Made by a program: the position numbers and the translations under genes
Assembly (NCBI GenBank): GCA_964460075.1
Contig: CAYWPC010000010.1
Location: 3,102 to 67,101, forward strand
Direction: 5' to 3'
DNA from: an uncultured Acidimicrobiaceae bacterium
GTDB taxonomy: Bacteria; Actinomycetota; Acidimicrobiia; Spongiisociales; UBA5794
DNA length: 64,000 bases
The notes under the pieces: generated by a model
Told to the model about the DNA's origin: nothing
What the model saw: only the letters and a program-made list of their open reading frames with translations
Databases searched by the model: none
Part shown: one piece after another, positions 33,230 to 52,279 of the stretch
Position numbering within the stretch: the first letter of the stretch is position 1
Layout: every line of letters begins with the position of its first letter

Positions 33230-34819
33230 TCAGGCATCGAGGATCTCGTAGGCAGGAAGGGTCAGGAACTCGGGGAACTCGTCAGAGAGCGCGACCTGCT
33301 CGAAGAGTGCCCTTGCTTCGTCGAAGCGAGATGCGTCATAGACCGCGTGGCCAAGCTCGGCGCGAACACGGTCGGTCTCTTCGTCTGCGATCTTGCGGAT
33401 GAGCTCGGGGGTGATCCGTGTGCCGTTCTCGGTCGACGAGGCAGAGTGCACCCACTGCCAGATCTGGGACCGAGAGATCTCAGCGGTCGCTGCGTCCTCC
33501 ATGAGGTTGTAGATCCCCGCCGCTCCGACGCCAGAGAGCCACGATGCGATGTAGCGGATCGCGATGTCGACGTTCTGCCTGACTCCGCCTTCCGTGATCG
33601 ATCCCCCTTGCACCGTGAAGTCGGTCAGATCTTCGACGGTGACTGCCACGTCATCGCGTTGCTTGGACAGTTGATTCGGGGCATCACCGAGAACGTCGTC
33701 GAAGATGCGGGTCACGAGCGGCACGAGATCGGGGTGTGCGACCCACGTGCCATCGCAGCCGTCGCCTGCCTCTCTCTCCTTGTCTTGCGTGACCTTGGCG
33801 AACGCGACTCGGTTGACCTCGTCGTTGCTCCTCGAAGGAATGAAGGCTGCCATTCCGCCCATTGCATGTGCGCCTCGCTTGTGGCACGTCTTGACTAGGA
33901 GCTCCGTGTATGCCCGCATGAACGGAACGGTCATAGCAATCTGTGCCCTGTCTGGCAGCGCTGGCACCCCAGCGGACCGGAACTTCTTTATGACGGAGAA
34001 GATGTAATCCCATCGACCGGCGTTGAGGCCACCGCAATGGTCGCGCAGTTCGTAAAGGATCTCGTCCATCTCGAATGCCGCGGGAATCGTTTCGATGAGA
34101 ACCGTTGCCCTCACGGTGCCGACGTCGATGCCGAGCACGTCCTGAGCATGTAGGAATACGTCGTTCCAGAGCCTCGCCTCGCGATGGCTCTCAAGCTTTG
34201 GAAGGTAGAAATACGGCCCAGAGCCTCGATCGATGAGAGCCGAGGCGTTGTGGAAGAAGTAGAGCCCGAAATCGAACAACGACGCCGAAACGGGAATGTC
34301 ATCGATCGTCACGTGGTGTTCGTCGAGATGCCAGCCTCTGGGCCTGACCATCAGCGTCGCGGTATCCGTGTCGAGTGCGTATTGCTTGCCCTGATCGTTG
34401 GTGAAGTCGATGCGCCCGCGGATTGCGTCGAACAGGTTGATCTGACCCTCGACCATGTTCGACCACGTTGGCGAGTTCGAGTCTTCGAAATCGGCCATAA
34501 ACACCTTCGCTCCGCAGTTCAACGCGTTGATGATCATCTTGCGATCGGTCGGGCCCGTGATCTCGCAGCGACGGTCGACCAGGTCGAGGGGTGCGGGCCG
34601 AACGGACCACTCGGCGGATCGCACGTTCGCTGTTGAGGTGAGAAACCCCAGGGGTGCGCCATCGTCGAACTGGATCTGACGCTCCCGTCTGATATCGAGG
34701 AGATGGAGTCGCGTTTCGTTGAATCGTGTGTGGAGATCCGCGACGAACTCGAGCGCGTCGTCAGCCAGCATGTCCGAGAAGTGGAGGCCCATCGGTCCCT
34801 CTATCGTGATGTCGTGCAT
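33230..34819 (-). CDS. aceB: Malate synthase A
   Basis: [36 protein letters not shown] and [14 protein letters not shown] motifs. Confidence 0.97.
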
Positions 34820-43026: not shown

Positions 43027-46000
43027 TCAGGTCACGACGGACTTGCCGGCCTCGCAATGGTGGAGGAAGTCGCAGAACCGACATGCGGGTGACGGCGAGG
43101 GGTCGAACGGCCCGGACGTCGCTGCCGCAACAAGGTCTGTGATGTTTGACTGTGCAGCTTGGAGCCAGTCATCGCTGACGACTCTCGTCACTTCCTCACA
43201 CGTCCCGTCACCGAAATAAGCGAACGTGACCTCGACGTTCTGCGGGATGGTGCCGGCTACGGTGCCGTTTGCGACTGCGAGAGCGTACGCCTCAAGCTGA
43301 ACGTTCTTCGCCGCGTCGTCACGCCGTTTGCCTGACTTGTAATCGACAATCTCCCATGTGCCGTCGTCACCGTCGTAGATGGCGTCGATCTTGCCCCTAA
43401 TGGTTCCTGGTTCGAGTCCGAGGACGAACGGTATTTCCACGAAGCGGGCCTGCATGCGGTGGAAGCGAGACCGAGCAAAGGCCTCCCAAGGGTCGCTTCG
43501 TGTCGGGCGCACAGTGGTGGCACCTTTGATGTGTACGGTGTCGAAGGCTCCGGTAGACGGATCGTCGAGGGCCACCACGCCGAGGTTGTGGAGCTCGACT
43601 TGTCGATGGAATCGGGTGCCGAGCGCAGCGGAGACCTGTGGGCGTCTGGGCAATCGGTCGTGCTGGATCCACTTGAACTTGAGGGGACACTCTGCGAGTG
43701 CGACCAGGTTCGTCACCGAAGTCGAGAACACGGTTCTGGTCGCTTCAGCCTTTGGAAGTTGGAGGTTGCCGATCTCCATGATGAGCTGTTCTGTTCGGTT
43801 GTGCACAGTGTCGACCATATCCGGGAAGTGATCCGTGATCCAGTGTGGATCACGGATTCGCTCACGCAGGGCACTCGTCCAGCCTCCTGGAAACAAAGGA
43901 TCAGGAGGGTCTGCAGGCTCCTCATGGGATCTCGGTGCCGGTTTGGGCCCGGCATCGTCCGTCCAGACGAGTGCGGTCGCCCCCGGCGTGTCGTTGGCTA
44001 TCTCAAGGAGCGGTGAAGGCGTACGAGGCCTCGTCACATCTCGGTCCCAAGCGTGGCCCGTCATGATGAGGTCGTGTTTTGCTCTTGTCACCGCGACATA
44101 CGCCAACCGCCACTCTGCAACGTTGTGGCGGGCACTGAGAATCTCTCTGCACTCTTGTGGCGACGCCGCACCTTGCACCGCTGCAAACGACGACCTGTCG
44201 AGACGGAGTTCGTACGGCAAGACAAGGGCCGATCTGCCCGGGTCGTCATAGGTTCGCACACCCGCTGGGAACGTGCCCTTGGCTAGGGACGGCAGGAACA
44301 CGATCGGCCACTCGAGGCCCTTCGCGGCATGAGCCGTGATCAGATGAACGACGTTTGACGACGTGTCCGCGGCCGCATCCAGTTCCTCGCCGGGTGATGC
44401 ATCATCGAGAGCGTCGACGTAGCGCAGAAACGCAGTGAGTGTCGGGGTGCCGTCGAGTGGTCTCCAGCGGCGGGTGAGCGAGGCGAACCGGCCGATATTG
44501 GCCCGTGCCGTTGCTGCGTCCGATGGCGACTGGGCTGCAACCTCGTCCCAGAATCCGAGGTTGGTGATCGTCATCTCGAGGATGCGGGGAACAGGGAGCA
44601 TCTGCGAGCGGGTGTACATATCTATGTGCAGCACTCCGAAGCGTTCGAGCCTGGCTCTCCCTTCGCTCGAGAGGCCTTCGATGTCGTCGAGATGCTCGAG
44701 CGCCACAGCCAAGTTGCGCGTTTCGACGTGTCCACACCATCTCCTCAGTCTCGAGATGTCGCGCATGCCGACCCGGAACATGCCTCCCAGGAGTATCCGT
44801 AGGAGTGACGGCTCGTCCGCTGGGTTTGCGAGGATTCGTAGCCAGGCGAGGAGATCTGCAACCTCAGGAACCGTGAGCAGGCCACCCATGGAACTGACGG
44901 CGTAGGGAATGTCTGCGTTTCTGAGGGCGTCCGCGATGGCGGGGATCGCTGATCTCTTGCGGCACAGGATCGCAACGTCGCACCATGACGAGCCGGATTC
45001 GCGACGGCGGTGTATCTGGTCGGCAATCCATTCGGCCTCATCATCATCTGTGGCGAACCACCCGACGCTGAGGCTTCCGTCTGCGGCGCCCTCACACGGA
45101 GTCAAAGGTTTGGAGGCTTCGATACGGGGGAGGTGACCCTGGATCTTGTTCGCCAACGCAAGGATGACCGTGTCAGAACGCCGGTTGATGCTCAGGGGGA
45201 GCGTCTCGGTCGGTAGACCATCTCTTCGAGGGAAGTGCACAGGGAAGTTGGCGAAGTTGTCAAGCGATGCGCCCCGCCAGTCGTAGATCGTCTGATCGGC
45301 ATCTCCGACGGCGGTCACAGGCTTGCCATCCCCGAATACGGAGGTGAGCAGCCGGCGCTGAGCCGGATCGGTGTCCTGGTATTCGTCGAGGAGAACCGTG
45401 TCGTATCGATCCGAGATCCCTGAGGCGACGTCTGGGAAGCCCTCGACGATCTCCACAGCGAGCCTGATGAGGTCGCCGTACTCGAGAAAGTGCAGGTCAC
45501 GTTTCGCCGAGGCGTAGCGGTCGGCAGCATGTGTCAGGGAGATGCGTGCCTTCCACACGTCATCCAAGGTAGCGGGTGCTGCATCTAGCACATCTTGCGC
45601 GGTGAGCAGGTTCGCGGTCATCGAGTCGGCAACGGTGAGTAACTCCTCCCTCCGTCTTGACAGGGATGAGAGATCGAGGTCCGTCGAGTCGAGATCTCGA
45701 AGGACTCGGTATGCAAGTTCCGATCGGTGACCTTGGTCCATCAGGGCCGATGCGGGCTCGTAACCAACGAAGGCTCCGAACTCGTCGAGGATCGACGACG
45801 CGAAACCGTGATACGTCGTCACCTCGACTTCTCTGTCATCGTCCCTATCACCGATAGCTTCCCGTAGCCGGGTCCGTAACTCGTCTGCGGCCTTGTTGGT
45901 GAAGGTGATCCCCAGAGCTCTCGTAGGGTCTCCCCCGCTATGTACCACTGCAGCGAAGCGCTCAACGATCGTTGTGGTCTTTCCGGTGCCTGCGCCCGCG

Positions 46001-46071
46001 ACGACTCGCAGCGGCACGGGCGGGTAGTCGATGATTGCCTGTTGTTCTGCGGTAGGTACGAACTTGGTCAT
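43027..46071 (-). CDS. adnB: UvrD-like helicase-nuclease, AdnB subunit
   Basis: AGAGTGKT, DEYQD, VGDADQTIYDWRG, TAHAAKGLEWP and LAYVAVTRAK motifs; C-terminal nuclease GKIDA-IVDYKSG-QLEAYA with C...CRFCDFLHHC. Confidence 0.88.
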   Translation of the reverse strand: MTKFVPTAEQQAIIDYPPVPLRVVAGAGTGKTTTIVERFAAVVHSGGDPTRALGITFTNKAADELRTRLREAIGDRDDDREVEVTTYHGFASSILDEFGAFVGYEPASALMDQGHRSELAYRVLRDLDSTDLDLSSLSRRREELLTVADSMTANLLTAQDVLDAAPATLDDVWKARISLTHAADRYASAKRDLHFLEYGDLIRLAVEIVEGFPDVASGISDRYDTVLLDEYQDTDPAQRRLLTSVFGDGKPVTAVGDADQTIYDWRGASLDNFANFPVHFPRRDGLPTETLPLSINRRSDTVILALANKIQGHLPRIEASKPLTPCEGAADGSLSVGWFATDDDEAEWIADQIHRRRESGSSWCDVAILCRKRSAIPAIADALRNADIPYAVSSMGGLLTVPEVADLLAWLRILANPADEPSLLRILLGGMFRVGMRDISRLRRWCGHVETRNLAVALEHLDDIEGLSSEGRARLERFGVLHIDMYTRSQMLPVPRILEMTITNLGFWDEVAAQSPSDAATARANIGRFASLTRRWRPLDGTPTLTAFLRYVDALDDASPGEELDAAADTSSNVVHLITAHAAKGLEWPIVFLPSLAKGTFPAGVRTYDDPGRSALVLPYELRLDRSSFAAVQGAASPQECREILSARHNVAEWRLAYVAVTRAKHDLIMTGHAWDRDVTRPRTPSPLLEIANDTPGATALVWTDDAGPKPAPRSHEEPADPPDPLFPGGWTSALRERIRDPHWITDHFPDMVDTVHNRTEQLIMEIGNLQLPKAEATRTVFSTSVTNLVALAECPLKFKWIQHDRLPRRPQVSAALGTRFHRQVELHNLGVVALDDPSTGAFDTVHIKGATTVRPTRSDPWEAFARSRFHRMQARFVEIPFVLGLEPGTIRGKIDAIYDGDDGTWEIVDYKSGKRRDDAAKNVQLEAYALAVANGTVAGTIPQNVEVTFAYFGDGTCEEVTRVVSDDWLQAAQSNITDLVAAATSGPFDPSPSPACRFCDFLHHCEAGKSVVT

Positions 46072-49055
46072 TGGGCGAAGGCCTCTCTTCCTTGAGGCTG
46101 GGCCGGGCAGACGAGGGCGACATCGCATCGGTCGCAATGTTTGCCGACGACCGGATCGAACCGCTCAGCGGCGATGGCCTTGGTGATGGCCTCGAGTTCC
46201 GCGGTCACTCCATCGAGTTGCGAGGGCTCAAGTGACCGGGTGACGATGCTGGTCTTGTTCGGGTCGATTCGCGGATACCAGAACTCGGCTCCGACGATCG
46301 ATCCCTTGGAGACAAGGGACGCATCATCTCTGGCGGCCAGAACGTAGTAGCCGAGCTGGAGTGACACCGCGGCGTCCGCAACTCTCACCGCTGATCCCGA
46401 CGTCTTGTAGTCGACGACGAAGAGCTCCTCGCCTCTTTGCTCGATACGGTCGGCCCGGCCCGTCCAGGGAACTCCTGCAACCGTATACGGCAGCTCTCTC
46501 TCGAAGGCCACGGGAACCCCAGAGGTTGGCCAGCGCTCGTAGAGGTTGTCCAGCGTAGTTTCGGCCCTCTCCCTCCACGATCTTCCCACAGCGTCGTCGT
46601 CGAAGCCCGCATCAGCCCACAGATCGTCGAGACACGCCTGGGCCTCTCTCCGTGTGGAACGCTGTCTGTCGTCCTCGACGGCTTGACGCTCGGCAACCTC
46701 GATGACCTTGTGGATGAGCGTGCCGAACTTCATGTGGTCACTGGTTTCGCTCCGCGAAAGCAGGTGCCTGCCTATGGCGTACTGCCGTGGGCAGGTGGCA
46801 TACGCTGTCGCCTGGCTCGGTGATAGCCGAAGCTGGTCAGGGACGATGTGGCGATGCGGACCTGATTCGAGTGCACCGTACCGGGTCATCGGATCCGATA
46901 AGCCGACGTGCGTGCCTCCAGCGAGCACGTCGATCGCCGCTAGCCGTTGGATGGCTGGTGCCTCAGGATCCTTGGCGGTCAGACGAAGCGCGGCTTCGAA
47001 CGAGCGAGGAGTCAGCGGCTCTGTGTTTCGATGTGGTGGTGTGATGGATGCCACGAGGGGAAGGAATCGGCTGGGCTGAGGTCCGTTTGGGACGGCGTCG
47101 TTGCTGGTCGCGGTCCATACGACGCGAGACGTTGCTCTGGTCATAGCGGTGTAGGCAAGCCGGCGTTCCTCGTCGAGCCGGAATGCAACGTAGTCGCTGG
47201 TCCTCGCGGGAAGGTGCGGGTTGAGGAGCCGCACGCCGAGGAGCGAGTCGCGCGATCGAAGATCCGGCAGGTCGCCCTCGACGGCGTTCGCGATGTAGAC
47301 GACATCGAAATCGGTGCCCTTGGCTCTGTGCAGTGTTGCGATCGTGACGCCGCCATCGTCAGCGGATCGGAAGGAGAACAGCGGATCCGCTTCGAAATCG
47401 GTTCCTGCCACGAGTGTTCCGTGGTCGGTAAGGGTCGCCCCAGGCGATCGTTCGACGAGCCGCGTGAGTACCTGGTCGAATGCAGCCCACGCACGCCGAT
47501 CGGCCAGGTGATCCGCGTCGAGCGCTACGGGAACGAGTTGCGGGAGCGTGGACCACACATGCCAGAGCCCGACGGGAGCCGGCACATCGCAGGCCCACGA
47601 AGCGTCATCGATGAGCGTCGCGAGGCGTTGGCCCTGAGGAACCCTCGATGCGATGAGTGCGGACCACGTAGCTCCATCTGCGGCCAAGCGGGCGAGGTGA
47701 TTAACGGTTCCATACGGCACGGCGAAGAACGGGCTCAGGAGAACTCGTTCGATCGCGAGGCCGGCACCTTCGTCCGTTCCGGTGGCGAGCACGAGGTCGT
47801 GGACGAGGCGGACGACGGGCTCGTCTGTAAGCCTGCTCTCTGTGAAGGAGTGGGGGAGAGAGCGACGCTCGAGCGCCGTTGCCAGCTCGCTGCCAAAGTC
47901 AGACTTCGTTCTTGTGAAAACGGCGACGCGCTCGAGCGGCACACCGTCGAGGAGGTGGACACGCTCGATGTCGGATGCGATCCAGTCGGCTTCGTCGTGG
48001 ATCGTCGTAAACGTGTGGGCGGCAACGCTTCCACCCGTCCGTGTGCTGTGCACCCTCCCCGCTCCTCCTGGCAGTTCACGCGCTGTGACACGGACGGCCG
48101 CATCGAGAATCTCGGAAGGAACCCGGAAGGATGTGGTGAGCACGATGCGCTCGGCCTCGGTTCCGAGGCGTTCCTCTGTGTCTTGGGGGAACGTGAACAC
48201 GTTGTTGATGTTCGTGCCGCGGAATGAATATATCGACTGATAGGGGTCCGCTGCGACCGTGAGGCTCGATCCCGGTGCGGCGAGCCGGAAGAGCATCTCT
48301 GCGTGAGCGTGAGACGAGTCCTGGTACTCATCAGCCACGATGAGGTCGTAAGGATCTGCGATCTCGGGTATCGCGCCGAGCGCGGCGACGGCCTCGGTGA
48401 GAATCCTTCCGTAGTCGGTTCGGTGTTGTGCAGTGAGGTATGCGTTGTACCGGTCGAAGAATCCGGCCATCGCGATGAGCCTCGGGTCGCTCATCGTCGT
48501 GAGATCTTCTGGGGTGATGAGCTGCTCGTGGCATCGCAGGATGAAGTCGGTGACCTCACTGGCCATCATGGGCGAGTCGAGGAGCGTTCGGTGGCCCGGG
48601 GGCCATGCAGACGGTGTCTCGGATGCGAGGAGGTCTGCCACGACCTTCTCTTGCTCCGCTGCGGTGAGCACGCTCGGCGTCCTCTCCCAGCCGAGGCTTG
48701 CAGCGTTCGCTTCGACGATGCGCATCGCGAGACTGTGATATGTGGCGACGTGGATGCGTTGTGCGAAGGGACCGATCATGTCGACGAGGCGTCGTCGAAG
48801 ATCGTTTACACCTGATCGCGAGAAGCCGAGAGCGAGGATCGCCTCTGGTGCGATGTGAGCATCGGCGATGGCAGCGTTCACGCGTGCAACGAGGAAGTGT
48901 GTCTTGCCCGTTCCCGGACCGCCAACAACGATCTGTGGCCGATCTGGTGGTGCGACAGAGCCACTCCAGTCTTGCGGTCCGAGTCTCGTCTCGATCAGCG
49001 GCATCGCACGAGCCTCTACGGTGACGGGGTCGAGTGGCGGGTCATCATCCGGCAT
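46068..49055 (-). CDS. adnA: UvrD-like helicase-nuclease, AdnA subunit
   Basis: GGPGTGKT, ADEYQD, TLHRAKG and EERRLAYTAMTRA motifs; C-terminal GRADRI-VVDYKTSG-QLGYY with C...CDRCDVALVC. Confidence 0.85.
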   Translation of the reverse strand: MPDDDPPLDPVTVEARAMPLIETRLGPQDWSGSVAPPDRPQIVVGGPGTGKTHFLVARVNAAIADAHIAPEAILALGFSRSGVNDLRRRLVDMIGPFAQRIHVATYHSLAMRIVEANAASLGWERTPSVLTAAEQEKVVADLLASETPSAWPPGHRTLLDSPMMASEVTDFILRCHEQLITPEDLTTMSDPRLIAMAGFFDRYNAYLTAQHRTDYGRILTEAVAALGAIPEIADPYDLIVADEYQDSSHAHAEMLFRLAAPGSSLTVAADPYQSIYSFRGTNINNVFTFPQDTEERLGTEAERIVLTTSFRVPSEILDAAVRVTARELPGGAGRVHSTRTGGSVAAHTFTTIHDEADWIASDIERVHLLDGVPLERVAVFTRTKSDFGSELATALERRSLPHSFTESRLTDEPVVRLVHDLVLATGTDEGAGLAIERVLLSPFFAVPYGTVNHLARLAADGATWSALIASRVPQGQRLATLIDDASWACDVPAPVGLWHVWSTLPQLVPVALDADHLADRRAWAAFDQVLTRLVERSPGATLTDHGTLVAGTDFEADPLFSFRSADDGGVTIATLHRAKGTDFDVVYIANAVEGDLPDLRSRDSLLGVRLLNPHLPARTSDYVAFRLDEERRLAYTAMTRATSRVVWTATSNDAVPNGPQPSRFLPLVASITPPHRNTEPLTPRSFEAALRLTAKDPEAPAIQRLAAIDVLAGGTHVGLSDPMTRYGALESGPHRHIVPDQLRLSPSQATAYATCPRQYAIGRHLLSRSETSDHMKFGTLIHKVIEVAERQAVEDDRQRSTRREAQACLDDLWADAGFDDDAVGRSWRERAETTLDNLYERWPTSGVPVAFERELPYTVAGVPWTGRADRIEQRGEELFVVDYKTSGSAVRVADAAVSLQLGYYVLAARDDASLVSKGSIVGAEFWYPRIDPNKTSIVTRSLEPSQLDGVTAELEAITKAIAAERFDPVVGKHCDRCDVALVCPAQPQGREAFAQ

Positions 49056-49875
49056 CGGCGGTCTGCCATGCAGGACACAGCGTTGCCTTGAAGTCGCACC
49101 AGTCGCACAACGCAGACGTGGTAGGTGGCCACGTATCGGTCTCAATCGCATGCTCGATTGCCGTCCACAGCGCCTCGAGTTGACGTTCCATGGCATCGAG
49201 CTGTGCGTCGGTGATATCCATGGTGTACTCGGTTGGCCCGTTGAGATACAGGAGTCGAACGCGGTCGGGCGTGACGCCCTTGGTGATTCGGATCAGCAAC
49301 GCGTAGATTTTCAGGGCGAAGAAGGCCTTGTGTGCGAATCGTTGCGGCGGGGCTCTCCCCGTCTTGTAGTCGGTGATCACCAGCACTTCTCGCACGGAGC
49401 CGTCGGTATCGACCTCGGTGATGTGCTCCATTCGGTCGAGGATTCCCCTGATCGTCATGTCGTTCACCGGAACCGTGAGGTCCATCTCGAGCTCGAGCGG
49501 TTCGAATGACGACGGATCCTCCACCGTGAAGTATGAGGCGAGAAGCTCAAGAGACTCAATTCCCCATTGGCGTTCGTCGTCGAGAGACGTGAACAGATCC
49601 GGGTATTCATCAGTTTTGAGCTCGGTCCATGCGGATCGAAAGAGGTCGTAGAGCTGCTCGGGTGTTCGCTGCGCAGCGGGGAGTTGGAACAGACGTTCGA
49701 GGGCGAGATGTGCCGTTGTGCCTCGAGCCTGGTGTACGGTCGGCTCGGTTGGGATCTTGTCGATGGATTTGAACTTGTACAGCTGAGGGCACGTCTTGAA
49801 ATCGCTGGCCCTGCTCGGAGACAGACTCGTCAGCGTGTGCCCTGTCGTGGGGGTGTCGGTGGGTTCGGTAGCCAT
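49045..49875 (-). CDS. RecB-family/Cas4-like exonuclease (Rv2119-like)
   Basis: LSPSRASDFKTCP, RGTTAHLALE, RGILDRM, TDYKTG and CDWCDFKATLC motifs; overlaps the adnA start. Confidence 0.88.
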   Translation of the reverse strand: MATEPTDTPTTGHTLTSLSPSRASDFKTCPQLYKFKSIDKIPTEPTVHQARGTTAHLALERLFQLPAAQRTPEQLYDLFRSAWTELKTDEYPDLFTSLDDERQWGIESLELLASYFTVEDPSSFEPLELEMDLTVPVNDMTIRGILDRMEHITEVDTDGSVREVLVITDYKTGRAPPQRFAHKAFFALKIYALLIRITKGVTPDRVRLLYLNGPTEYTMDITDAQLDAMERQLEALWTAIEHAIETDTWPPTTSALCDWCDFKATLCPAWQTADAG

Positions 49876-49881
49876 GCTCGC

Positions 49882-49903
49882 AGCGTACTTGCCTGCTGTG
49901 ACA
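49882..49903 (-). promoter_or_regulatory. PafBC/RecA-NDp-type DNA-damage promoter (TGTCAC-N10-TACGCT), leaderless
   Basis: Minus strand reads TGTCAC agcaggcaag TACGCT gcgagc ATG, matching the spacing of the TGTCRG-N10-TANNNT consensus (5/6 in the upstream element). Confidence 0.65.
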
Positions 49904-49977
49904 GAAATGGGTTCAGCGAGTCGTCTCGTGGGCGTGTTGCTCGAAGGGATGCAGACCGCACGAGTGAGGCTGCTGTT

Positions 49978-50051
49978 CGCGAAAAACGTGTGTGGGTCGC
50001 GAAAAGCACATGACGTTGTGAGCTACACAGGTGACGGCAGTTCCGTAGTTT
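49978..50051 (+). promoter_or_regulatory. Candidate ncRNA-A promoter: tandem CGCGAAAA boxes plus -10 TAGTTT
   Basis: Boxes at 49978-49985 and 49998-50005; -10 at 50046-50051, the same offset as in unit B. Confidence 0.6.
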
Positions 50052-50058
50052 CCCAAAT

Positions 50059-50470
50059 ATCCAGAGACGTAAGTCGATGGAGTGGCACAGGGCAAGCTCC
50101 TCACCCGAGCAGGCCTAACCGGGCGACCGGGTGCCTTTGCAGCGAAGGGCGACCGGAGCTGCAGCCTGCCGCTTCGGCGGTAGGCACAAGGTCTCGAGCA
50201 GGAGCCCAGCCTTCGAGAGGCCACCGGAGGTCCGCCGTGAGGTTGGGTCTCCACCCGGAGGCGACCTCGGTCGCCGCCGTAGCGTTTCTGCGAACCTCGG
50301 TTCGTATGAGCGGTTCCGTCCAGTGATGGAGACCTCGGTCCTCGTCGAGGACGGAGCACCCCGGGAGGAGTCGGGAGACTGGCGAGACCCGGATTGGAGT
50401 GACTGTGTCACTTCGCTTGAGAACCCCGAGAGGGCGAGGCCTCGGCCGAGCTTCCTCGGGGTTTCTCTTA
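50059..50470 (+). ncRNA. Putative novel structured ncRNA A (about 410 nt)
   Basis: Dense hairpins with UUCG, GNRA and four c(CUCG)g loops; a GAA/GGA-GNRA module; terminal hairpin homologous to ncRNA B; no credible CDS; convergent with the downstream gene. Confidence 0.65.
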
Positions 50471-50476
50471 TGTTGG
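50419..50476 (+). terminator. Intrinsic terminator-like hairpin ending ncRNA A
   Basis: GAGAACCCCGAG...CTCGGGGTTTCTC followed by TTATGTT. Confidence 0.7.
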
Positions 50477-50532
50477 CGGTGCTTGCCTCAGCGCTCCTCT
50501 GCTCCCCAATCTTGTCCACTTCCGGCGCGGCG

Positions 50533-51165
50533 TCAGCACGTCGGCTCGATTGCGATGAAGTCGACGACCCCCGAGTCACCCGGCGCGTCGAGTTTGCCGA
50601 CCATGTGGGGATCAGAGGAGCCGTCGACGACGAACGTCGCGGAGGCGATGTCGTAGGCATCCGTGACGCTGACCCGAGCGCCGTAGGAGTCGACGAGGTC
50701 ACGCCTTGTAGATCCGAGGCCTACGCCTTCTCGAGTGCGAAGGTTGGAATTCCTGAGGTCCACGGAGTTGGCGGTCACCGGATCGAAACCGTAGGACCAG
50801 CTCGCAAGGCGCTCACCGTCGACGTCCGCAATGAAGACGAGAGCGAGGGAGCCCCAAGACACGACACGGGCAGCACCGCTTGGGCATTCGGGGGCAGCAA
50901 CGGTGCTTGCGTCCTCACGTGAGTCGGCGTCCCACCCGCCGATTGCTGCAGCTATGCCAGCGATCACGGTCTCGGCATCGTCGCCGATGGCGAACGGCCC
51001 GATAGCGTCGCTTGTCAGCGTCAGATCGGTGGAAGGGGTCGGTCCGGAGGGGAGACTCGTCGTTGTCGACGGCTCGGCTGTGACGACCGGTTGTGAGATC
51101 GAACAGGCGCCTGCGAGCAGTGCAAGAGCCGTTGCGAGACGAAAAATAGGCGGAATCGAACGCAT
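50533..51165 (-). CDS. Hypothetical lipoprotein
   Basis: Lipobox LAGAC, Thr/Pro linker, one Cys pair; leaderless TACCGT-N6-ATG promoter. Confidence 0.75.
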   Translation of the reverse strand: MRSIPPIFRLATALALLAGACSISQPVVTAEPSTTTSLPSGPTPSTDLTLTSDAIGPFAIGDDAETVIAGIAAAIGGWDADSREDASTVAAPECPSGAARVVSWGSLALVFIADVDGERLASWSYGFDPVTANSVDLRNSNLRTREGVGLGSTRRDLVDSYGARVSVTDAYDIASATFVVDGSSDPHMVGKLDAPGDSGVVDFIAIEPTC

Positions 51166-51186
51166 TTCGCAACGGTAGTCGGGAGA

Positions 51187-51260
51187 CGCGAAAACTCGTC
51201 GTGGCTCGCGAAAAGCAATCAGCGTTCCAGGTTGCGAAGCCTCTCTGCATGTGCCAAATT
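51187..51260 (+). promoter_or_regulatory. Candidate ncRNA-B promoter: tandem CGCGAAAA boxes, -35 TTGCGA, N17, extended -10 TGn-CAAATT
   Basis: Boxes at 51187-51194 and 51207-51214; TTGCGA at 51232-51237; CAAATT at 51255-51260. Confidence 0.62.
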
Positions 51261-51267
51261 AATGCTT

Positions 51268-51580
51268 ACCGCAAAGGGGCAACCCGGAGCGGACCGCAAT
51301 CGGGGAGACCCGGGAGCGGGTGCCGAAGGGAAACCGGAGGCATCCGGTGTAAAAACCGGTGACCGGTCTGGAAACGGGCCGGGTCCTTGAGAGGGCACCC
51401 TCGGGTGTTCGGGGCGTCCGCCCCAGTCCTCGGCTTCGGTCGACGACAATCACAAGGAGGGTGCGAGTCTCGATTCGCATCTGGCTCCGCTTGCGGAGCA
51501 GCGAAACCGAAGGCCGCAAGGTCGGAGGCGACGTAGAGAACACCCCAAGGGGGCTTCGGCTTCCTTGGGGTTTCTCGTTG
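51268..51580 (+). ncRNA. Putative novel structured ncRNA B (about 310 nt)
   Basis: About 13 consecutive hairpins, mostly capped by GNRA/UUCG/CUUG/CUCG loops; four RAW/GGA-GNRA modules; terminal hairpin; the downstream gene has its own leaderless promoter. Confidence 0.75.
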
Positions 51581-51585
51581 TTGGC
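51536..51585 (+). terminator. Intrinsic terminator-like hairpin ending ncRNA B
   Basis: GAGAACACCCCAAGG-GGGC-TTCG-GCTT-CCTTGGGGTTTCTC followed by GTTGTT. Confidence 0.72.
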
Positions 51586-51661
51586 TCACCAACGACGAGG
51601 CGTCGTCGAGTCCACAGATGCCGGACGTCCACCGAGGTTCAAGGTGAACTATGCTGGCTGC

Positions 51662-52279
51662 ATGTCCTGGCCAGATGACGCCCTCAGCGATGACGAAACG
51701 ATCATCACCTCGTTTAGGCCTCATTGGAAGTTGCTGTTCATCCCGTTCGTGTGGTTCGTCGCGATCGTCGTGGTGTTCTCCTTTGCACTTGCGTTGCTCA
51801 CGGACCTGTGGATCGTCTGGTTGGGCATCCTTGTCGCTGCAGACGCATACTTCGTCATTCGGCCTGTCGTCAACTGGTGGTTCACTCGCTACGTGCTCAC
51901 GACGGAGCGGTTGATCACCCGAGTCGGCCTCATCGCACAGTCGGGTGTCGAGATCCCGCTCGAACGGATCACGAACGTCAACTTCTCGCAATCTGTGTTT
52001 GAGCGGTTACTCGGAGCTGGTGATCTACTGATCGAATCTGCCGGAACATCCGGGCAGAGCAAGTTTTCGAACATCCCTCACCCCGATGACTTCCAGACCC
52101 TCTTGTACAAGGTGCGCGAGAAGCGGACCATCGAGCTGAGCGGCATGCAAGACGCGCTCGACACACCCAAGGCAGACGCCGTCGACTCCATTCGCAGGCT
52201 CGCAGAGCTCCTTGAGGAAGGTCTCGTCTCACCAGAGGAGTACGAGATGAAGCGCAAAGAACTGCTCGACGAGATGTAG
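51662..52279 (+). CDS. Membrane protein with bacterial PH (bPH_2) and SHOCT domains
   Basis: RPHW, two TM segments, YVLTTERLITRVG-IPLERITNV, ERLLGAGDLLIESAG, and SHOCT LAELLEEGLVSPEEYEMKRKELL. TATGCT-N6-ATG leaderless start. Confidence 0.88.
   Translation: MSWPDDALSDDETIITSFRPHWKLLFIPFVWFVAIVVVFSFALALLTDLWIVWLGILVAADAYFVIRPVVNWWFTRYVLTTERLITRVGLIAQSGVEIPLERITNVNFSQSVFERLLGAGDLLIESAGTSGQSKFSNIPHPDDFQTLLYKVREKRTIELSGMQDALDTPKADAVDSIRRLAELLEEGLVSPEEYEMKRKELLDEM

Follow-up and report, generated by a model that had tools for sequence, protein, structure and literature searches.

A new family of highly structured small RNAs in Acidimicrobiia, very probably transcribed from stand-alone genes beside a bPH_2 membrane-protein gene

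Does an intergenic gap that is rich in hairpins encode an RNA, and if so, what kind of RNA? The question is raised by a 496-bp gap in the window analysed here, a 64,000-nt stretch of contig CAYWPC010000010.1 from an uncultured Acidimicrobiaceae bacterium. The gap lies between a minus-strand lipoprotein-like open reading frame (ORF; 50533-51165) and a plus-strand gene for a bPH_2-SHOCT membrane protein (ATG at 51662). A preliminary description of the letters had read positions 51268-51580 as a plus-strand non-coding RNA with about 13 consecutive hairpins. Our analysis indicated that 51268-51576 (+) is very probably a stand-alone gene for an independent structured small RNA (sRNA), here called RNA B, which has a paralogue, RNA A, upstream. 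The RNA B family is a new family of bacterial sRNAs, with neither Rfam membership nor a description in the literature searched. Its build is unusual: arrays of hyperstable tetraloop hairpins, an invariant terminator hairpin with tandem G.U pairs and a conserved activator-like pair of upstream repeats. The covariance models of Rfam 15 gave no match at gathering thresholds in the whole window and none at gathering or permissive thresholds in 15 related loci (103 kb in total); at E values up to 10, they returned only chance-level hits of 13-18 bits in 51100-51700. ARAGORN detected no tRNA or tmRNA gene in 49800-51800, and no tRNA-like module was present. Literature searches on the RNA itself, on 6S RNA in Acidimicrobiia and on the repeat motif returned nothing relevant and no paper mentioning the motif or the RNA.

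We compared the folding energy of 51268-51580 with that of dinucleotide-shuffled controls. The plus strand folded at -166.7 kcal/mol against -136.9 +/- 5.2 kcal/mol for the shuffles (z = -5.74; none of 100 shuffles was as good), and the minus strand reached a z of only -2.84. All 13 hairpins of the preliminary description were found at their places. Stable tetraloops with their closing pairs were located at 51278 (GGCAAC), 51304 (GGAGAC), 51329 and 51370 (GGAAAC), 51399 (CCUCGG), 51434 and 51554 (CUUCGG), 51468 (UCUCGA), 51489 (GCUUGC) and 51515 (CGCAAG), on the plus strand only. Among 172 distinct family members, the most over-represented hexamers were all stable tetraloops with closing pairs, 5- to 12-fold above expectation: CUUCGG was observed 316 times (30.7 expected), CGCAAG 179 times (14.7), GGAAAC 165 times (33), CGAAAG 109 times (27) and GGCAAC 108 times (17). 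The loop class was constant by position (Table 1), with GNRA in every sequence at hairpins H3 and H9. Nearly every hairpin of RNA B has a GNRA or UNCG/CUUG tetraloop as its cap, and the canonical extra-stable loops named in the earlier reading (GNRA, UNCG and CUUG) were not only located but also enriched and kept in place.

The conservation of the stems was examined with two covariance models built from curated structures; relatives were realigned because a plain MAFFT alignment put some hairpins one column off. Model R1 covered 51381-51532 (a four-way junction, H7, H8 and H9) and model R2 covered 51293-51380 (H2 to H5). R1 matched 30 RNAs of the sequence cluster to which RNA B belongs (B1; E values from 5e-46 to 2e-10), and R2 matched 23 RNAs. 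In R1, 86.1% of the cells were paired against 75.2% in shuffled controls, and 38 of 48 pairs had changed on both sides (21.9 +/- 2.0 shuffled); the corresponding values for R2 were 88.2% against 79.3%, and 17 of 29 pairs against 10.4. The covariation score was 0.400 for R1 (0.215 shuffled; 0.05-0.095 when the pairing partners were slid) and 0.359 for R2 (0.202 shuffled; 0.036-0.092 slid), and in neither model did any of 500 shuffles reach the observed values. Compensatory changes were found at 55 of the 77 modelled pairs, above every shuffled and slid control; these alignments were fitted to the model structure and hence favour it, which weighs against the result, although the controls argue that this bias explains only part of the effect. 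The gap to both controls, together with the many pair types per position, leaves a real structure as the only reasonable reading. RNAalifold, run on 21 B1 sequences, gave 67 pairs, 24 of them with compensatory changes. On the plain MAFFT alignment it also joined the first GGGGA to the 3' tail in a long-range helix, which was rejected; all columns of that helix are invariant and a local GNRA hairpin explains them better. A pairing of H8 with H9 in the minimum free energy (MFE) structure of the window was also discarded, as it was not conserved.

These data also bear on whether the hairpins act in DNA, as palindromes of the repetitive extragenic palindromic (REP) or miniature inverted-repeat transposable element (MITE) kind or as a terminator cluster. 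Hairpins are palindromes in DNA too, and in many loci the unit is flanked by CGCGAAAAC ... GTTTCTCGCG. However, the structural alignments contained 224 G.U or U.G cells and only 50 A.C or C.A cells, an excess of 4.5 to 1 which indicated that the plus strand is the RNA. Compensatory changes are not expected of DNA repeats, the stable tetraloops occur on the plus strand only, the minus strand folds much less well, and in every locus fetched the copies lay together between a PD-(D/E)XK nuclease gene and the bPH_2 gene. The reading as DNA palindromes consequently retains next to no probability, and selection at the RNA level, as first proposed for the plus strand, is borne out by the two checks named with that proposal (folding energy against shuffles, and stems and loop classes kept in homologues), by the G.U excess, an upstream promoter and a terminator-like hairpin at the 3' end.

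The promoter had the same layout in every aligned locus: a pair of (T)CGCGAAA(A/C) repeats spaced 20-21 nt apart, a -35 element, a 17-nt spacer and a -10 element. For RNA B, the two CGCGAAAA repeats sit at about -55 and about -75, and TTCGCGAA is an 8-bp palindrome. The pair CGCGAAA-N10-14-CGCGAAA had just two matches in the window (49978 and 51187), against 0.01 expected. The inferred start, A51268, lies 7 nt past the -10 element and coincides with the first position given in the preliminary description. A consensus promoter scan missed this promoter, the -10 of which begins with C; the assignment rests on conservation in register. At the other end, the terminal hairpin consists of a 13-bp stem with a UUCG loop, a 5-bp GAGAA/UUCUC extension and one bulged C, followed by TTTCTCGTTGT. 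It was nearly invariant over about 45 loci. Its fifth pair covaries (A-U, G-C, C-G), its tandem G.U pairs are always kept, and its loop changes among UUCG, GAAA, GCAA and GCGA. A G+C-rich hairpin with a U-tract, the form of an intrinsic terminator, is present at this end of RNA B. The ends of RNA B in Table 1 were taken from the promoter position and the terminator hairpin. RNA A and RNA B have the tail GCTTCCTCGGGGTTTCTC in common; the tail GCTTCCTNGGGGTTTCTC had only two exact matches in the window, at 50450 and 51559, and three at up to 3 mismatches (0.14 expected). A near match to this terminator tail with 3 mismatches, GCACCCCTGGGGTTTCTC at 34640-34657 (-), is probably an ordinary terminator.

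RNA B always lay directly upstream of bPH_2 on the same strand, 40-100 nt before the ATG, and ended in a terminator-like hairpin. It might for these reasons be a cis-acting 5' leader, either a riboswitch or a protein-controlled attenuator, with the terminal hairpin as the regulated terminator. We examined the sequence directly before the bPH_2 gene. A TANNNT hexamer ended 6-7 nt (twice 9 nt) before the bPH_2 ATG in 46 of 46 loci, against 1% of random positions, so that the gene appears, from this pattern, to be leaderless with its own promoter. Leaderless genes are common in Actinobacteria. The bPH_2 gene's own -10 in this layout indicates that RNA B is a separate transcription unit. RNA A shares the promoter and terminal hairpin of RNA B but is followed by a convergent gene or by RNA B's promoter, and by no gene on its own strand. 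Furthermore, no conserved anti-terminator pairing was noticed in the alignments, which were inspected by eye only and without a dedicated search, and a body that varies from about 110 to 600 nt is unlike a ligand pocket. We consider a leader very improbable.

The plus strand could in principle be read as protein. ORFs crossing the RNA B region on this strand lacked credibility, as relatives differ by many indels and inserted hairpins. A small ORF with AAGGAGG as its ribosome-binding site was rejected as well: no start codon stood at a usable distance, and the stretch is paired and its sequence is not conserved. AAGGAGG is one strand of the closing stem of the four-way junction and is not a conserved ribosome-binding-like site.

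The features of RNA B and its surroundings are collected in Table 1. At the 5' end, H1 and H2 form a 26-nt unit repeated 2.0 times with 81% identity (Tandem Repeats Finder). Among relatives, both copies were confined to the closest six; this tandem duplication of the 5' module is recent. The preliminary description had drawn the whole stretch as a row of back-to-back hairpins. The hairpins are there, but the middle of the row is a four-way junction. The stretch 51444-51460, described as single-stranded, turned out not to be free: its CAAGGA (51453-58) pairs with UCCUUG (51384-89) and closes this junction. The closing stem was present in the MFE structure of about 27 of 30 relatives, with differing sequences (UCUCC/GGAGA, CUCCUUG/CAGGGGG, UCCCAGCG/CGCUGGGA and ACCG/CGGU). 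The sixth hairpin of the earlier list, GTCCT-TGAG-AGGGC, exists as a sequence but is not a separate element, as it competes for the 5' strand of the closing stem. Constrained folding preferred the distal closing stem in most relatives, and the register of the local hairpin varied between sequences. The UCCUU strand has two possible partners, the adjacent AGGG(C) (giving the sixth hairpin of the earlier list, 51383-51397) and the distal CAAGGA, and in many relatives the two are near-identical (UGACGGAGA, for example, occurs twice in L012). This alternative pairing could be a folding intermediate or a switch. In H3 and H9, the 3x3 purine loops (GAA opposite GGA) turned into Watson-Crick pairs in some lineages; these loops are hence not obligatory motifs.

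Table 1. Coordinates of RNA B, its paralogue and the associated promoter and terminator elements in the window.
Feature	Position	Strand	Remarks
RNA A repeat pair, CGCGAAAAA-N11-CGCGAAAAG	49978-50006	+	repeat-pair pattern
RNA A, paralogue, ~409 nt	50059-50467	+	-10 TAGTTT at 50046-51; terminal hairpin at 50419-50467; 0.8 kb upstream of RNA B
Upstream repeat 1, CGCGAAAAC	51187-51195	+	~-81 to -73 from the inferred start; in all aligned loci
Upstream repeat 2, CGCGAAAAG	51207-51215	+	20 nt after repeat 1
-35-like hexamer, TTGCGA	51232-51237	+	aligned TTGCnn/TTGACG/TGGACA in all family promoters; 17 nt before the -10
-10-like hexamer, CAAATT	51255-51260	+	TG at 51252-53; aligned CAnnnT or TAnnTT in relatives
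RNA B, inferred transcript, ~310 nt	51268-51576	+	folding z = -5.74; kept in 30 close and many distant relatives
H1 (51269-92) and H2 (51294-319), two copies of one module	51269-51319	+	outer stem, purine-rich internal loop, GGG/CCC stem, GNRA loop
H3, GUGCC-GAA-GG-GAAA-CC-GGA-GGCAU	51320-51343	+	GNRA 23/23
H4, CCGGU-GUAAAA-ACCGG	51344-51359	+	93.8% paired; 5/6 pairs compensatory
H5, CCGGUCUG-GAAA-CGGGCCGG	51363-51382	+	98.5% paired; 4/6 pairs compensatory; GNRA 22/23
Central four-way junction	51384-51458	+	closing stem UCCUUG 51384-89/CAAGGA 51453-58; covariation
P6a, CACC-CUCG-GGUG	51396-51407	+	inside the four-way junction; YNCG 21/30
P6b, GGGGC-GUCC-GCCCC	51411-51424	+	inside the four-way junction
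P6c, (GUC)C-UCGGC-UUCG-GUCGA-C(GAC)	51426-51447	+	inside the four-way junction; YNCG 23/30
H7, GGUGCGAGU-CUCG-AUUCGCAUC	51460-51481	+	95.2% paired; 8/9 pairs compensatory; YNCG 28/30
H8, GCUCCG-CUUG-CGGAGC	51484-51499	+	96.5% paired; 5/6 pairs compensatory; CUUG 15/30
H9, CC-GAA-GGCC-GCAA-GGUC-GGA-GG	51507-51528	+	GNRA 30/30; inner stem covaries
Terminal hairpin/terminator, GAGAA(C)ACCCCAAGGGGGC-UUCG-GCUUCCUUGGGGU-UUCUC	51536-51576	+	tandem G.U; terminator-like site 51542-51571
bPH_2-SHOCT gene, -10 and start	51650-51664	+	-10 TATGCT at 51650-55; ATG at 51662; limit of the RNA unit

We then considered the distribution of the family. A genome search with the downstream bPH_2 protein yielded 49 syntenic loci, all in metagenome-assembled Acidimicrobiia, a few of them misbinned, and blastn and MAFFT comparisons showed that the RNA region was conserved ahead of this gene. 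The terminal hairpin, used as an independent query, returned 30 stretches, almost all from Acidimicrobiia; one was labelled Armatimonadetes and was probably misbinned. A looser hairpin pattern found at least 120 stretches, nearly all with Acidimicrobiia or Actinomycetota labels and a few from other phyla, probably misbinned; three complete chromosomes each appear once among the matches listed. All genome records found were metagenome or single-cell assemblies. The family was absent from viral contigs, and plasmids showed no similarity to it. In every locus with enough flank, the order was a PD-(D/E)XK nuclease gene (-), one or two RNA units (+) and bPH_2 (+), sometimes with a lipoprotein gene (-) between the two units. 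Relatives of RNA B thus occupy this position in well over 100 genomes of Acidimicrobiia. Family copies were found only at this place in the loci examined, and there was no sign of dispersed copies.

Most related loci carried two units, and the sequences fell into three clusters: A (about 405 nt), B1 (which includes RNA B of the window) and B2 (about 310 nt). RNA A of the window had a folding z of -6.84 and the same hairpin-array style as RNA B. The A-type RNAs of 19 loci could be aligned and showed many compensatory changes, an invariant GGAGCCCAGCC block and promoter elements in register. In a wider search of all loci, model R1 also matched the B2 and A types weakly, including 50216-50359 of the window (E = 2e-4). 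More distant genomes carried a short form, with about 225 nt from repeat to terminator and an RNA of about 145 nt. Family-wide, the repeat-to-terminator distance ranged from 188 to 681 nt and the RNA from about 110 to 600 nt, and extra hairpins had been inserted in several lineages. The short-form RNAs (L099, L100, L111, L116 and about 45 other loci) contained an internal, highly conserved CCGGGGGCCCGCUUUCCCGG element, which echoes the GGGG/CUUC tandem-G.U theme of the terminal hairpin.

How might such an RNA act? An independent sRNA gene with a terminator, and purine-rich segments such as AAGGAGG, would suit a classical base-pairing sRNA that regulates mRNAs via a short seed. However, the invariant columns sit in stems and loops, no conserved unpaired stretch able to act as a seed was found, the linkers vary, AAGGAGG is paired and not conserved in sequence, and the tetraloops are too short to be seeds. 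We regard a seed-based sRNA as improbable. The lack of a conserved unpaired seed and the freely changing number of hairpins instead point towards a multivalent protein-binding platform, and length-variable hairpin arrays with invariant ends suggest a stable pair of protein-binding sRNAs under a class-wide regulator.

We propose the following mechanism. A DNA-binding regulator conserved across the class would bind the two upstream repeats and switch on the RNA A and RNA B genes together. Stable hairpins at both ends would shield the RNA from nucleases, and it would be long-lived and accumulate. It would then act in trans as a multivalent protein-binding platform, a sponge or a scaffold, and not by pairing with mRNAs or as the leader of the next gene. 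The invariant tandem-G.U 3' hairpin and the 5' module may be the specific recognition elements, and the number of hairpins between the ends may grow and shrink by duplication. This platform mechanism is held tentatively, at somewhat less than even chances. As the best explanation overall, we lean slightly towards a stable, highly structured sRNA gene, the second of two tandem paralogues, whose product acts in trans as a multivalent protein-binding platform under a class-wide regulator.

Several points weigh against this explanation. The platform model names no partner protein. The hairpins have no short motif common to all of them, unlike the GGA of CsrB, and the purine loops of H3 and H9 are lost in some lineages. 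The strict adjacency to the bPH_2 and PD-(D/E)XK genes could mean a local function. With only a short U-tract (UUUCU), part of which pairs with GAGAA, the efficiency of termination is uncertain and read-through into bPH_2 is possible. Finally, the 5' and the 3' end of RNA B were both placed from sequence.

The fixed neighbourhood and loops would also fit an architectural RNA, either a defined particle that forms by folding or self-assembly via GNRA tetraloop contacts or a ribonucleoprotein with the neighbouring PD-(D/E)XK nuclease or bPH_2 membrane protein, with parallels in OLE/OapA and Y RNA/Ro. GNRA loops are fixed at H3, H5 and H9 and UNCG loops at P6a, P6c and H7, a four-way junction is present, and both neighbours keep their place in the gene order throughout the class. 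This reading is unlikely, as the wide variation in hairpin number and length fits one precise three-dimensional fold poorly, no receptor motifs or pseudoknots were identified, and no RNA-binding domain is known in either neighbouring protein. Y RNAs beside rsr (Ro) and OLE RNA beside oapA are, like RNA A and RNA B, structured non-coding RNAs that stay with the same protein genes over long evolutionary distances, and Y RNAs also occur in tandem; RNA A and RNA B differ from them in having no Ro or Oap genes nearby, no tRNA-like module and no Rfam match.

The proposed platform has the logic of CsrB/CsrC and RsmX/Y/Z, the protein-sponge sRNAs of Gammaproteobacteria. These likewise come from stand-alone sRNA genes, of which there may be one or several paralogues, and a dedicated regulator acts on them through an activating sequence conserved upstream. 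Their hairpin modules vary in number and their length varies accordingly, they end in a terminator hairpin, and they show little other sequence conservation. RNA A and RNA B differ from them in lacking GGA in the hairpin loops, in their upstream motif and in showing no homology. A CsrA-type GGA sponge was rejected: the loops are GNRA, YNCG and CUUG, and CCGGA was enriched only about 2-fold, on the 3' side of stems. An antitoxin RNA of a type III toxin-antitoxin system (ToxI-like) was rejected too, since only one 26-nt unit is repeated, twice, at 81% identity and the downstream gene encodes the bPH_2-SHOCT membrane protein.

Alternatively, RNA B might correspond, in Acidimicrobiia, to Ms1 or 6S RNA. 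It would then be abundant, bind the core or the holoenzyme of RNA polymerase and adjust transcription globally to the growth phase. Its size of about 310 nt, high G+C content, strong structure and actinobacterial host are those of an Ms1-like RNA (PMC4191392, PMC9130861). Ms1 of Mycobacterium and Streptomyces and 6S RNA resemble RNA B in their length of about 300 nt, G+C-rich structure, actinobacterial host and hairpins at both ends, and 6S-1/6S-2 is a precedent for paralogue pairs. The Ms1 survey makes no mention of Acidimicrobiia, and Ms1 homologues from one genus cannot be aligned with those from another, so that missing similarity is no exclusion. The repeat pair that also stands before dnaA in Actinomarinales (see below) hints at growth-linked control. 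However, the helices supported by covariation are all local, the widest (P6) spanning about 75 nt, the 5' and 3' halves form no rod, and a central bubble is lacking; the MFE structure of RNA B has 1 pair with a span above 100 against 9 in Streptomyces coelicolor Ms1. The conserved neighbourhood of Ms1 comprises an HAD-IB hydrolase/phosphoserine phosphatase and an oxidoreductase (PMC9130861). This synteny was absent and no HAD hydrolase was found within +/-10 kb of RNA B, which is flanked by the PD-(D/E)XK nuclease, the lipoprotein-like ORF and bPH_2-SHOCT. A blastn comparison with S. coelicolor Ms1, verified by rapid amplification of cDNA ends (RACE), gave a best E value of 0.44, which is weak evidence given that Ms1 genera are mutually unalignable, and the Rfam 6S model gave no match. 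With its missing long rod and central bubble, its other gene neighbourhood and its lack of a sequence or Rfam match, RNA B is rejected as a member of the Ms1/6S families on fold, synteny and sequence, and a functional counterpart that binds polymerase is improbable.

Another structured RNA for comparison is the raiA motif RNA, which is about 200 nt long. RNA B resembles it in being structured, in size and in occurring in the same bacterial class; it differs in genomic context and in that no Rfam model matched in the window or the 15 related loci. The raiA motif RNA (RF03072) is widespread, also in Acidimicrobiia, and of unknown function (PMC10861870).

The repeat pair was also found away from the RNA genes. 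A strict scan of all genomes recovered the RNA loci and all eight Actinomarinales loci fetched; as a definition of a regulon, the scan was rejected, because it gave many unrelated matches in other phyla (tandem repeats and coding sequence). In the Actinomarinales loci (L192, L194, L197, L217, L224, L240, L283 and L286), TTCGCGAAAAC-N10-TTCGCGAAAAC lies in the gap between rnpA/rpmH and dnaA, 130-200 nt before dnaA (in L217, for example, at 2117-2145). In the Candidatus Actinomarina loci L192, L194, L240 and L286, and as a variant in L217, the pair is followed by TATAAT and a short stretch that ends in a hairpin and a U run; another Actinomarinales group (L197, L224 and L283) differs downstream of the pair. 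This element could represent either a dnaA leader or a minimal RNA, and the same regulator may act on it. In L241 (2142-3034, minus strand), a repeat pair, a -35 GTTGCG and a -10 TACCTT precede a 265-aa ORF that has no Pfam family, and the same metagenome-assembled genome has an RNA locus (L085). This ORF is a possible further regulon member, and the regulator may control more than these RNAs.

Two further observations concern the surroundings of the RNA genes. Upstream on the minus strand of the window (43027-49875) lie two large UvrD-helicase/PD-(D/E)XK proteins (AdnA/AdnB-like, 1036 and 1042 aa) and then a 276-aa stand-alone PD-(D/E)XK protein (Cas4-like); these ORFs overlap by 70 and 152 nt, and some starts are probably further downstream. 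In the 130 nt past the terminal hairpin of related loci, short tandem repeats were present in 67 of 195 stretches, compared with 93 of 585 random stretches. The period was 7, 14 or 21 in 37 of these 67, and the window has none. The 7-nt-period units differ by locus, with TTTCAGC, CTGACGT and GGTACTC (13.7 copies) among them (e.g. L011 1058-1099, L059 6578-6616, L143 and L075).

What would the family mean for Acidimicrobiia? These bacteria abound in freshwater and marine habitats as well as in soil, sediment and sponges. Our literature searches turned up no report of a regulatory RNA in the class, and the RNA B family provides the first well-supported class-wide sRNA genes there. A far-reaching and doubtful extension of our proposal is that a new class-wide regulatory circuit produces RNA A and RNA B, in which the regulator of the TTCGCGAAAAC pair, a pair that also stands before dnaA in the streamlined Actinomarinales, would couple the growth or replication state to two abundant RNAs that hold or organise a core protein, with the tandem-G.U hairpin as the part recognised. 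Candidates for that protein would be RNA polymerase (the RNAs then being a third polymerase-binding type beside 6S and Ms1), a ribonuclease, the PD-(D/E)XK nuclease or the bPH membrane protein. By means of the two covariance models (together 51293-51532) and the patterns for promoter and terminator, members of the family can be annotated in genomes and metatranscriptomes. The conserved upstream repeat pair supplies a handle on the family's own regulation, and the tandem-G.U terminal hairpin, an invariant RNA element with sharp limits, is suitable as bait. If the RNAs assemble through their fixed GNRA loops, they would join the few large structured RNAs of unknown function known from bacteria; should they instead sequester a global protein, the CsrB/6S/Ms1 logic would gain a new example, reached from a different architecture.

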